Assembly: GCA_015075105.1 (NCBI GenBank)
Contig: JABTUZ010000002.1
Coordinates: 784,313-848,312 of the forward strand
Source: Leptospiraceae bacterium
GTDB taxonomy: Bacteria > Spirochaetota > Leptospiria > Leptospirales > Leptospiraceae
Direction of reading: 5' to 3'
DNA: 64,000 nt
Of the stretch, positions 17,458 through 21,050 are shown in pieces. Both the position numbers and the translations under genes were made by a program. Position 1 is the stretch's first letter, and each line of letters starts with the position of its first letter. The notes under the pieces are model-generated. The model did no database searches. It worked only from the letters and a program-made list of their open reading frames with translations, and was not told the origin of the DNA.

Positions 17458-19092
17458 TTGAAGGCAGGACAACTCCAAAAGCTAAAAAATCTTGCCGAAA
17501 AGCGTCTAAAAGAAGATGTATTGATTTCCAAAGATTTGGCTAAGTCAATTTGTGAGATTTCTTTTGAGATTAGAAGGCAGGTTGGTCTCCTCATAGATCG
17601 AAAAGGTTATGTCACACACGTAATTATAGGGAATGACAATTCCATCGAAATTCCCTATCTCGATAGGATTCGCACCTCAGAGACTCGTCTTCGGGGAATT
17701 CGGCTCGTACATACCCATTTAAAGAAAGAGCCTCTATCCATGGATGATCTTACAGACTTGGTGTTATTGAGGTTGGACTACATTACTGCAATCACTATGG
17801 ACTTAAATGGATTTCCTGAGAACTTTTATTCATCTCATATCAACGCTGAAGAAAATTCTGAAAAACTTTGGACTGTATTAGAAAAAGAGTACCCCGGTCA
17901 ACTAAAAGAAGGAATGCTGTCTGAAATCATTGAAATAGAAAATAGCCTTGCTAAGAGAAGAGACAACTTAAAAGCAGCACAAAAATTGAATCGCGCGATC
18001 CTTGTTGGAGTCTATTTGAATAATAAATTTTCCAGAAATCCAGAAAGCTCAATGGCAGAATTGAAAGAGCTTTGTCGAACTGCCGGAATTTATGTAGTGG
18101 ATACGTTTTCTCAAAAGAGAAGTGCATTGGATGCAAGTACGGTTTTGGGAAAGGGAAAGATTCAAGAAATTATCCTGAACTCGATTCAAAAAGATGTTGA
18201 ACTACTCGTATTTGATTTAGAGCTTTCCAGTTCTCAAGCAAAGAAAATTTCAGATTTTTCAGATTTGAAGGTAATAGACAGGACTCAACTCATACTCGAT
18301 ATTTTTGCAAGAAATGCAAAAAGTAGAGACGGTAAATTGCAGGTAGAGCTTGCACAATTAAAATATTTAAAAGGGCGACTATCTGAACTCGATGACAATA
18401 TGTCGAGACTGACCGGAGGAATCGGAGGAAGGGGGCCCGGAGAAACAAAACTTGAAATTGGAAAAAGACGAGTAGAAGAAAAAATTCACAGATTGGAAAA
18501 TGAAATAAAAAGTTTAAGAACAAGAAGAGAATTGAATAGAAAAAGAAGAGGAAGAAATGAAATTCCTGTAGTCGGGATTGTTGGCTATACCAATGCCGGT
18601 AAGTCAACCCTATTGAATTCTTTAACAAACTCAGAAGTGATAGCAGAAGATAAATTATTTGCTACCTTAGACCCTACTACTCGAAGAATTCGTTTTCCCT
18701 CTGTAAGAGAAATAATTATTTCTGATACAGTGGGATTTATCCATGACCTGCCTCCGGACTTGTCTAACGCATTCAAAGCAACCTTGGAAGAATTATCTGA
18801 TGCAGACTTGCTTCTTCATGTAATTGACTCCTCGAATCCGGATTATGAAGAGCACATTAAAGCAGTCGAAAAAATATTGATTGAACTTAAATTAATTGAT
18901 ATTCCGAGAATTCAAGTTTTTAATAAAATAGATTCTTGTCCGAGAGATTTTCCTAAAAACAATCAAAACGATATGTATGTATCTGCTTTGCAAAAAATAG
19001 GGTTAGAAGAGCTTTTGGATCGAATAGAAAAAGAAATCTGGTTAAATAAAAATCAAGACCAAGCAGACTTAGCTTTGTCTTTGGATTCATAA
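17458..19092 (+). CDS. hflX: GTPase HflX
   Basis: HflX N-domain, G1 '[12 protein letters not shown]', 'DTVGF', 'NKID'; ~100-aa N-terminal extension. TTG start as in the ORF track; the start is uncertain. Confidence 0.9.
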
Positions 19093-19424
19093 ATTACAAC
19101 ATCTTTTGGAATTTCGATCAGATTGAGTATGGTTTCTAAAAAAGGATGGATCCCACCGATTACGATTTTTCCATTTTTCTGTGCGACTGTTCGAATAATG
19201 GTCAACAACATAGCAATCCCGGTGCTATTGATATATTCAAGCGAAGATAAATCTAATATTAGATTATAAATTTTATCTTCAAAGACGATACTGATTTTCT
19301 TGGAAATCTCAAATGCGTTGTTATTAGAAATTTTTCCGCATAGTTCTACAAGCATTACAGGCAGCTCGCCTATGTGCAAAACATCAGTTTCAAAATAAAA
19401 AGAATCGAAGTCTGTCCTTACCAT
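19053..19424 (-). CDS. STAS-domain anti-sigma-factor antagonist (SpoIIAA/RsbV-like)
   Basis: '[18 protein letters not shown]' with the phosphorylatable Ser context; its 3' end overlaps the hflX 3' end by 40 nt. Confidence 0.8.
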
Positions 19425-19437
19425 ACAATCTAATCCT

Positions 19438-19776
19438 TTATTTTACTATTAGGGTTAAATTTTCAAGATTTATTCTAATTTTTTCCTTGAGTATATATTT
19501 TTTTTCATCATAAAACCCCTTCCACACAATTGCAATTTTTCCCCTATTGCGTGAAAGCTCTCCTTCATAATTTAAATATATATTTCTATGGTTTGGCTTC
19601 TTTGTGCAAGTTACCTCTTCCCCGCTTTGGAATCTTCCCCAGTCTTTTCTCTGAAACTCATAAGTTAGTAATTCCGAGTTTTCTTCTGTTTCAAAAAATA
19701 TATCGTAGTGCGATTCATTATGGAAGTTGAAAACTTGCTTAGGGAAATCGTGAAAAGAAATAGTAACCCTTTTCAG
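19438..19776 (-). CDS. LigD_N-type (DNA ligase D 3'-phosphoesterase-like) small protein; start codon non-canonical or lost
   Basis: 112-codon open frame absent from the ORF track: (L)KRVTISFHDFPKQVFNFHNESHYDIFFETEENSELLTYEFQRKDWGRFQSGEEVTCTKKPNHRNIYLNYEGELSRNRGKIAIVWKGFYDEKKYILKEKIRINLENLTLIVK*. 'H.ESHYD..FE' and 'NHR..YL.YEGE.S..RG....W.G.Y' fit the family pattern. No in-frame ATG/GTG/TTG before codon ~85. AGGAG lies 5 nt upstream of CTG 19776. Confidence 0.5.
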   Translation of the reverse strand: MKRVTISFHDFPKQVFNFHNESHYDIFFETEENSELLTYEFQRKDWGRFQSGEEVTCTKKPNHRNIYLNYEGELSRNRGKIAIVWKGFYDEKKYILKEKIRINLENLTLIVK

Positions 19777-21050
19777 AGGGACTCCTGCAACCTGACTAAA
19801 ATAGTTTTTTCTTTTATAATATCTGTCATCTCGTCGATTTCTTTTAAGGATTTCAGTATATCCCTCTCTTTGGATTTATGGGTAATTACGATTACCTCGA
19901 TAGGCTCTTTATTGGACTCGTTTTGTCTGACTGTGGAAATTGAAATATTATTATTGCCGAGAACATCTGTAATATGTCCAAGTACTCCAGGTTTATCTAC
20001 AGTATTAAACCTCAAGTAAAACTTAAGAACGCTTTCTTCAGGATTCATCATTTCTGCGGGAGAAAACAGATTTTTTTCTAGGGAGTTTTTATCTTTTCCG
20101 ATTCGAGAAGAATAAAAAACTAAATCAGAAACAACTGCGCTTGCAGTAGGAAGTGAGCCTGCGCCCTTCCCCATTAGAATTGTAGGACCGGAAAACTCAG
20201 AATGAAAATACACTGCGTTCATTTCGTTCATTACGTTGGCTATCGGGTGAGAGAGAGGAATCATGGCAGGATGGACTCTGGCTTCAATCAAATCTCCGTG
20301 TTTTCTGCAAATCCCCAGAAGTTTAATTCTATATCCTAATTGCTTTGCAAACAGAATTTCTGTTTTCGTGATTTTTGAAATTCCTTTGGTAAATATTTTA
20401 CTGCTTGGAATTTTTCTATCAAATACAAGTCCACCGAGTATAGAAAGCTTTTGTGCCGCATCAATTCCCTCTACGTCAAACGTCGGGTCTTTTTCTGCAA
20501 ATCCAAGCTCTTGAGCTTTTTTTAGAGCATCTGAATATTCTAAATTATCCTCTTCCATTTTAGATAAGATGAAATTTGTAGTTCCGTTTAGTATTCCATA
20601 CACAGATTCAAACTGGTTGGATACAAGTCCTGTCTTTACAGTCCGAATCACAGGGATAGCTCCACCGACTGAAGCCTCGTAACCGATTTCTACTCCATTA
20701 TCAGATGCGAGTTGGAAAAGCTCTTCTCCTTTTTCAGCTATGAGTGCCTTATTCGCAGTAATGACTGTTTTTTTTGAGAGTAAAGATTTTTTTACAATTT
20801 CGTAAGCTATAGTAGTTCCACCTATTAGCTCTACTACAATATCAATATCTTTTTTGGACAGAACATCTTCAAAATTATCGGTGACTGGAATAGAAGTGAG
20901 TTTTTTAATCTTTTCAGTATCTTTATCACAAATTAGTGCTAAGTTTAGCTCAATTCCTGATCTATCTTGGATTAGCTTTTTTCTTTTTTCAAGAATTGAA
21001 ATAAGCCCTGAGCCTACAGTTCCGCCACCCACCAACGCTACATTAAACAT
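19773..21050 (-). CDS. hom: homoserine dehydrogenase with C-terminal ACT domain
   Basis: 'VALVGGGTVGSG' NAD-binding fold, catalytic domain '...GILNGTTNFILS...', ACT tail. Confidence 0.92.
   Translation of the reverse strand: MFNVALVGGGTVGSGLISILEKRKKLIQDRSGIELNLALICDKDTEKIKKLTSIPVTDNFEDVLSKKDIDIVVELIGGTTIAYEIVKKSLLSKKTVITANKALIAEKGEELFQLASDNGVEIGYEASVGGAIPVIRTVKTGLVSNQFESVYGILNGTTNFILSKMEEDNLEYSDALKKAQELGFAEKDPTFDVEGIDAAQKLSILGGLVFDRKIPSSKIFTKGISKITKTEILFAKQLGYRIKLLGICRKHGDLIEARVHPAMIPLSHPIANVMNEMNAVYFHSEFSGPTILMGKGAGSLPTASAVVSDLVFYSSRIGKDKNSLEKNLFSPAEMMNPEESVLKFYLRFNTVDKPGVLGHITDVLGNNNISISTVRQNESNKEPIEVIVITHKSKERDILKSLKEIDEMTDIIKEKTILVRLQESL

Follow-up and report, generated by a model that had tools for sequence, protein, structure and literature searches.

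A CTG codon overlapping the hom stop as the probable start of a conserved, unannotated gene for a small phosphoesterase-like protein in Leptospiraceae

In a 64,000-nucleotide stretch of a Leptospiraceae genome (hereafter the window, meaning the whole stretch of DNA that was analysed), the minus strand between hom and a STAS-domain gene, from 19776 to 19438, probably holds a functional and unannotated gene, the middle member of an operon with the order hom, small gene and STAS gene. The comparison with orthologous loci established the small gene as a genuine one that is conserved and subject to selection, and showed that a CTG codon overlapping the hom stop is positionally homologous to the canonical start codons found in its relatives. 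It is quite likely, on these comparisons, that translation of the small gene starts at this CTG (19776-19774), whose use would be coupled to the termination of hom. The features on which this reading is based are as follows.

19438..19776, minus strand: unannotated coding sequence for a small protein resembling the LigD 3′-phosphoesterase (PE) domain (LigD_N superfamily), with 112 codons plus TAA, based on orthologues, dN/dS and an AF2 model
19774..19776, minus strand: proposed CTG start, overlapping the hom stop as CTGA, at a position matching the TTG or GTG of relatives
19782..19786, minus strand: Shine-Dalgarno-like AGGAG, within the hom codons Gln-Glu-Ser, 5 nt upstream of the CTG
19773..21050, minus strand: hom (homoserine dehydrogenase, 425 aa), whose TGA stop (19775-19773) is shared with the CTG
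19759..19761, minus strand: alternative near-cognate ATT start, disfavoured, at codon 6, which specifies Ile in the conserved motif T-I-S-x-H
19525..19527, minus strand: GTG at codon 84, the first canonical in-frame start, from the reading of the ORF
19696..19752, minus strand: codons H9, H23 and D25 (equivalents of the Mn-binding triad of PE) and F27 (position of the phosphate-binding Arg of PE), invariant in 31 family members
19576..19590, minus strand: codons H63-R64-x-x-Y67 (H63 and Y67 equivalent to His84 and Tyr88 of PE, R64 specific to the family), invariant, aligned to 3P4H/3P43
19053..19424, minus strand: downstream STAS-domain gene of the anti-sigma-factor-antagonist type, 13 nt past the stop of the small gene, identified by Pfam STAS on orthologous contigs

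According to the stop-to-stop ORF list and to a reading of the reverse complement of positions 19300-19900, the minus strand is open over 145 codons, beginning at 19875 and closed by the TAA at 19440-19438, and 112 sense codons are counted from the CTG to this stop. The 3′ end of hom reads CAG GAG TCC CTC TGA, with the TG of its TGA shared with the CTG. The GTG at 19527-19525 is the sole canonical start in the entire open frame and lies 29 codons from its end, and the product that would be initiated from it has 29 aa and lacks any conserved motif. Downstream, 13 nt separate the stop of the small gene from the ATG of the STAS gene (19424), and upstream, hom was assigned on orthologous contigs by the Pfam families NAD_binding_3, Homoserine_dh and ACT. 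The small gene was never called at full length by gene callers, which reported only a 78-aa piece on a Logan contig. Most of these observations agree with the original prediction, which had described a minus-strand frame of 112 sense codons between hom and the STAS gene, as the ORF listing confirmed, and had quoted from its product the peptides FHNESHYDIFFE and NHRNIYLNYEGELSRNRGKIAIVWKGFYD, both of which were found in the translation. The CTG at 19776 overlapping the hom stop with an AGGAG 5 nt upstream (at 19786-19782), as well as the ATT at 19761 with an AAGGG 5 nt upstream, were also recovered in the sequence read as they had been described. The absence of ATG, GTG and TTG from most of the frame was likewise verified, but the first such codon is found 29 codons from the end instead of about 25, and the gap to the STAS gene, previously given as 14 nt, was measured as 13 nt.

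In a six-frame search with the 112-aa translation, 20 of 41 relatives yielded one orthologue free of interruptions, as did, using the same single sequence as the query, 54 of 114 Leptospiraceae genomes. A profile built from 31 orthologues identified the small gene, as a single copy, in 58 of these 114 genomes, distributed over 11 of 14 genera. The order hom, small gene and STAS gene was observed in all the fetched loci that carry the small gene and reach both flanks. The Leptospira orthologues deposited in NCBI are hypothetical proteins of 100–111 aa, for which Pfam domains are not recorded.

The genus to which the window belongs was represented by three sequences: the window itself (L001), L002 from genome G001, with 57% amino acid identity, and L021 on a 979-nt Logan contig, with 86%. 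No further members of the genus were found in two metagenome scans, one of them based on protein-derived patterns and the other on a DNA pattern spanning the junction. In all three sequences the frame is intact, with one in-frame codon indel, and all the 14 invariant residues of the family are kept. The pairwise dN/dS values within the genus were 0.32, 0.27 and 0.21, at dS of 0.24, 1.2 and 1.5 (Nei-Gojobori, three sequences), and when non-synonymous changes were compared with synonymous ones by Fisher tests, p=1.8e-6 and p=0.003 were obtained.

Among the 114 genomes, the small gene is absent from genera g7, g13 and g14 and has decayed in some g3 species. In g7 and g14 the STAS gene is found directly after hom, and relics with 1–3 stops plus truncation were identified in genomes G053, G048, G050 and G057. 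In genus g3, locus L043 (G053) has a remnant of about 360 nt between hom and the STAS gene, with a weak match broken by stops, and locus L044 (G062) has about 270 nt at the same place, with undetectable similarity. Together, the g3 remnants and the adjacency of hom and the STAS gene in g7 and g14 indicate that the small gene was lost several times; therefore, it is dispensable in those Leptospiraceae lineages. It is conceivable that the small gene is very weakly expressed and heading for loss.

Concerning the start codon, all 33 start regions compared outside the genus carry an ATG, GTG or TTG located 3–7 codons before the invariant Thr of the T-(I/L/V)-S-x-H motif. In ten loci (L006, L007, L008, L010, L015, L023, L025, L026, L027 and L029), a TTG overlaps the TGA of hom as TTGA, and for five loci of g10 this TTG lies exactly 4 codons, and the TGA 11 nt, before the Thr, which corresponds to the geometry of the CTGA reported here. 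A relative present on three metagenome contigs reads TGA TTG AAA AGA ATC ACT, as compared with CTG AAA AGG GTT ACT in the window. The lineage L003 (genus g11) carries a GTG at the codon position of the CTG; in the Hom tree, it was recovered as the sister lineage with support of 92/88, and the CTG clade itself received support of 100/99. Within the genus, L001, L002 and L021 all show the CTGA overlap.

An additional constraint was provided by L021, which has an in-frame TAG 6 codons upstream of the CTG. Therefore, only the CTG or the ATT can start the protein in that genome, and no significance attaches to the long stretch over which the frame stays open within hom in L001 (33 codons) and in L002 (47 codons). 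An upstream non-canonical start within the 33-codon open overlap was also considered and is ruled out by the same TAG. Just upstream of the CTG, the differences between L001 and L002 leave Hom unchanged but alter the residues read in the ORF frame; in codons 2–5 (AGG/AGA, ACT/ACG), the differences are silent in the ORF frame. The AGGAG is identical in L002 and L021, and the AGGA or GGA that relatives have at this position is found there because the hom C-terminus, R-L-Q/E-E/D, encodes it. In the AF2 model, residues 2–10 form strand 1, with a mean pLDDT of 95 over residues 1–10, and the whole of this strand, together with the invariant T5, S7 and H9, is located before the first canonical start at codon 84. 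The use of CTG as the start codon would also explain why gene finders miss the gene in this genus. The original prediction had left two readings side by side, a non-canonical initiator coupled to hom and a recent start-loss pseudogene. The first is strongly favoured by the presence of CTG, in three diverged species of the genus, at the site where relatives have TTG or GTG and by the purifying selection on the gene, and the orthologue alignment showed a conserved ORF for which relatives use ATG, GTG or TTG and the genus has CTG with the frame intact.

Another reading accepts the gene as real and places its start at the ATT in codon 6 (19761-19759), with AAGGG as the ribosome-binding sequence, resulting in a product of 107 aa. 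ATT is a documented bacterial initiator, about as strong as CTG (10.1101/063800), and it occurs in all three sequences of the genus, in two of them with AAGGG 5 nt upstream. However, this ATT is the codon for Ile in the T-I/L/V-S-x-H motif found throughout the family, so that its conservation is explained by the protein, and the SD-like AAGGG is replaced by AAGAG in L002. Additionally, all orthologues outside the genus start 3–7 codons before the Thr, upstream of the ATT, and residues 2–5 (K-R-V-T) show silent changes only and are part of the confidently modelled strand 1, half of which would be deleted by an ATT start according to the AF2 model. Initiation at the ATT is therefore unlikely, and initiation at the CTG is preferred.

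The pseudogene reading, in which the change from TTG or GTG to CTG silenced the gene and the frame has not yet been broken, is considerably less probable still. The missing canonical start, the loss or decay of the gene in other Leptospiraceae lineages and the fact that no gene caller annotates it at full length are all compatible with it. Nevertheless, the CTG was already in place before three species diverged from one another, with dS of 1.2–1.5, and the frame is intact in all of them, and the dN/dS values of 0.2–0.3 (p=1.8e-6) and the complete set of invariant residues point to purifying selection. The true relics of G053, G048, G050 and G057, by comparison, show 1–3 stops and truncation, and the chance of a random 112-codon frame of this base composition remaining open, calculated by us from the GC content, is only about 2.5e-4. 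Finally, a C-terminal extension of Hom synthesized by −1 ribosomal frameshifting near the hom stop can practically be dismissed, since, although the ORF lies in the −1 frame of hom and is unusually open upstream of the CTG, for 33 codons in the window and 47 in G001, the third genome (L021) has the TAG 6 codons before the CTG, the final 20 codons contain no slippery X XXY YYZ heptamer in the hom frame, no slippery element is common to L001 and L002, RNA structure after the site is insignificant (z=+0.3 to +0.6), and all the other genera have separate canonical starts, several of them after a gap.

Regarding the origin of the preferred CTG start, the first base of an NTG start codon, TTG or GTG in relatives, would have changed to C in the ancestor of the genus. 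CTN codons always specify leucine and, for this reason, a change of this base to C is silent in hom. This C occupies the third position of the final Leu codon in hom, where any substitution is silent and gives rise to TTG, ATG or GTG. The CTG would be read as fMet, and ribosomes terminating on hom would be retained through the AGGAG and resume translation at the CUG that overlaps the stop; alternatively, ribosomes finishing hom may keep the site open for fresh initiation. Initiation at CUG reaches about 1–2% of that at AUG in E. coli reporters (10.1101/063800), and coupling to hom would offset the weakness of the codon. Termination-reinitiation at 4-nt overlaps, usually aided by an intragenic SD, was demonstrated in E. 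coli and Haloferax (PMC6728339; review PMC12548453).

CTC accounts for 16% of the CTN codons, versus 46% for CTT. Given an ancestral C, its persistence has a p of about 0.3, according to our own estimate from dS in three sequences, which is not significant and does not set it apart from neutrality. Three species separated by dS>1 retain the C, and it is possible, but rather doubtful, that the weak CTG has been selected, with CTGA determining a very low and strictly hom-dependent expression of an NHEJ-independent branch of the PE fold tied to the STAS protein.

Overlaps of the NTGA type are common in this genome, and they were counted at junctions between an ORF of 150 codons or more and a following frame of 80 codons or more. 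It was verified that long downstream frames follow 207 ATGA, 62 TTGA and 18 GTGA overlaps, and that 12 CTGA cases exist, six of which are TGATG junctions and five of which have a canonical start within 30 codons. The junction between hom and the small gene is the only one of the 12 CTGA cases without a nearby canonical start; thus, the use of CTG is not habitual in this genome. At three other CTGA junctions of the genome (G000), all outside the window and located at C2:35351 (−), C2:1222612 (−) and C1:1282194 (+), the open frames have 630, 370 and 170 codons, and the first canonical start is found 23–30 codons downstream. These junctions may correspond to ordinary genes following a gap of 70–90 nt or to more CTG-coupled starts. 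Between hom, the ORF and the STAS gene, promoter- and terminator-like matches occurred at chance level, which is compatible with a single operon. RNA folding at the junction, evaluated over 96 nt in three species, revealed no structure beyond that of shuffled controls (z=+0.3 to +0.6) and, therefore, no sign of a coupling hairpin or of a frameshift stimulator.

As for the encoded product, structure prediction showed that the small protein is a 112-aa β-barrel and a divergent member of the LigD PE superfamily, with a predicted PE-like fold. Against PF13298 (LigD_N), the window protein reached 15.1 bits (E=0.026), below the gathering cut-off of 31.1, in a match spanning profile positions 5–94 of 107, and it had no match in an NCBIfam search. 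Among the 31 family members, 16 matched LigD_N at E<=0.1, with a best E-value of 1.8e-7. When the family profile was searched against the PDB, it retrieved two archaeal PE proteins of the stand-alone type, 3P4H at E=0.002 and 3P43 at E=0.011, aligned over about 90 residues. [quoted passage not shown] The loop between the first two conserved His residues is about 6–8 residues longer in the genus than in other genera (window 19711-19749, residues 10–22), and it is the only part of the model with low confidence, with a pLDDT of about 59.

Over the 31 sequences, the invariant residues are T5, S7, H9, H23, D25, F27, L36, H63, R64, Y67, L68, G72, G79 and G87. In the P. aeruginosa LigD PE, His42, His48 and Asp50 bind Mn2+, Arg52 contacts the phosphate, and His84 and Tyr88 are catalytic (PMC8656161). 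H9, H23 and D25 were aligned to the H..HWDLRLE and H..HYDFRLE segments of 3P4H and 3P43, that is, to the positions of the Mn2+ triad, and H63 and Y67 were aligned to DHDLSY and DHPLAY, at the positions of His84 and Tyr88. However, the phosphate-contacting Arg of HxDxRxE (Arg52) is replaced by the invariant Phe27. The original description of a LigD_N-type protein was supported, with the qualification that one defining feature of PE, the Arg of HxDxRxE, is absent; matches to LigD_N were obtained for a part of the family, the window protein itself remaining below the cut-off.

A profile search detected neither Ku (PF02735) nor a canonical LigD_N in the genome of the window and in 15 other Leptospiraceae. 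As a positive control, two genomes of a neighbouring family that have Ku and LigD were scored at 109–151 bits, indicating that the search works. Considering the replacement of the Arg and the failure to find Ku and LigD, the term LigD-like names here a fold and not a pathway. In an exhaustive search, the family profile also retrieved 2506 representative proteins at E<=1e-3, most of them with 100–130 aa, which share the pattern HxD(L/I)(M/F/L)xE ... DHRxxYLxYEGxxSxxRG. The LigD_N cut-off was passed by four of the eight stand-alone members scanned, and distant stand-alone relatives scored 32.7–57.6 bits. By its motifs, the window protein is placed in a large, unstudied and Arg-less stand-alone branch of the PE fold, and it may be regarded as a putative metal-dependent phosphoesterase that would act outside Ku/LigD end joining.

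With respect to the genomic context, lineages without the small gene still keep hom followed by the STAS gene, which weakens the case for a functional dependence on STAS. For three distant stand-alone members of the family, the neighbourhoods have nothing in common (YidC, an acetyltransferase and none, respectively). A functional link of the small protein to STAS or Hom is thus a matter of speculation. In a related Leptospiraceae lineage (L039:2501-3190, and also L040 and L041), the small PE-like gene and the STAS gene are joined, without an intervening stop, in one ORF of 229 aa, which was found on three JGI metagenome contigs from three samples and whose start is a TTG directly after the hom TGA. 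Another composite protein, P0047 (362 aa), combines an N-terminal TruA-type pseudouridine synthase domain with a C-terminal small PE-like domain (residues 256–358), and it could be either a real fusion or a gene-calling artefact. At the other end of the STAS gene, its 3′ end and that of the convergent hflX overlap by 40 nt (window 19053-19092), and the same is seen in L021, L022 and L039.

CTG start codons were proven by N-terminal proteomics in Deinococcus-Thermus, for rpsL and Deide_03051, and a CTG start was also reported for the plasmid RepA in E. coli (PMC2830850). The present case resembles those of Deinococcus-Thermus in that a near-cognate CTG takes the place of a canonical start and is conserved in relatives, in that the next canonical start would drop conserved N-terminal residues, and in that annotation misses or truncates the gene. 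On the other hand, the CTG start proposed here is part of a 4-nt CTGA overlap, in which coupling to hom is a likely aid, and it concerns a single gene in the genome. The -4 overlap, the SD within the upstream gene and the TTGA found across the family are features shared with the NTGA junctions at which termination-reinitiation was studied (PMC6728339, PMC12548453), but in those studies C was not treated as the N of a start, as it is here. Ribosomes that reinitiate would presumably tolerate CUG more readily than 30S complexes that start de novo.

The small protein has in common with the LigD PE domain (PF13298; 3N9B, 3P4H, 3P43) the β-barrel and the H...HxD and DHxxxY...EG...G motifs, which align over nearly the full length. 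It differs from that domain by the invariable Phe at the position equivalent to Arg52, with an invariant Arg found instead after the catalytic His, and by its small size of about 110 aa without the disordered N-terminal arm. The length, the motifs and the loss of the Arg are shared with the wide stand-alone family of about 100–130 aa; however, divergence is greater in the branch of the Leptospiraceae, where the gene is found in a constant context of its own, between hom and the STAS gene.

On this reading, the case adds a new example to a type of start codon that is rare but already known, and it concerns an uncharacterised branch of a known fold. For annotation, it means that the gene lists of a Leptospiraceae genus lack a conserved gene or give it in truncated form, as gene finders do not allow CTG. 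Since sister genera have TTGA where this genus has CTGA, with the upstream protein unchanged, the junction constitutes a clean natural case, which bears on whether termination-reinitiation at -4 overlaps relaxes the choice of start codon. For enzymology, it draws attention to a large and unstudied branch of the LigD phosphoesterase fold, which has lost the phosphate-binding Arg and is found in bacteria without Ku and LigD.
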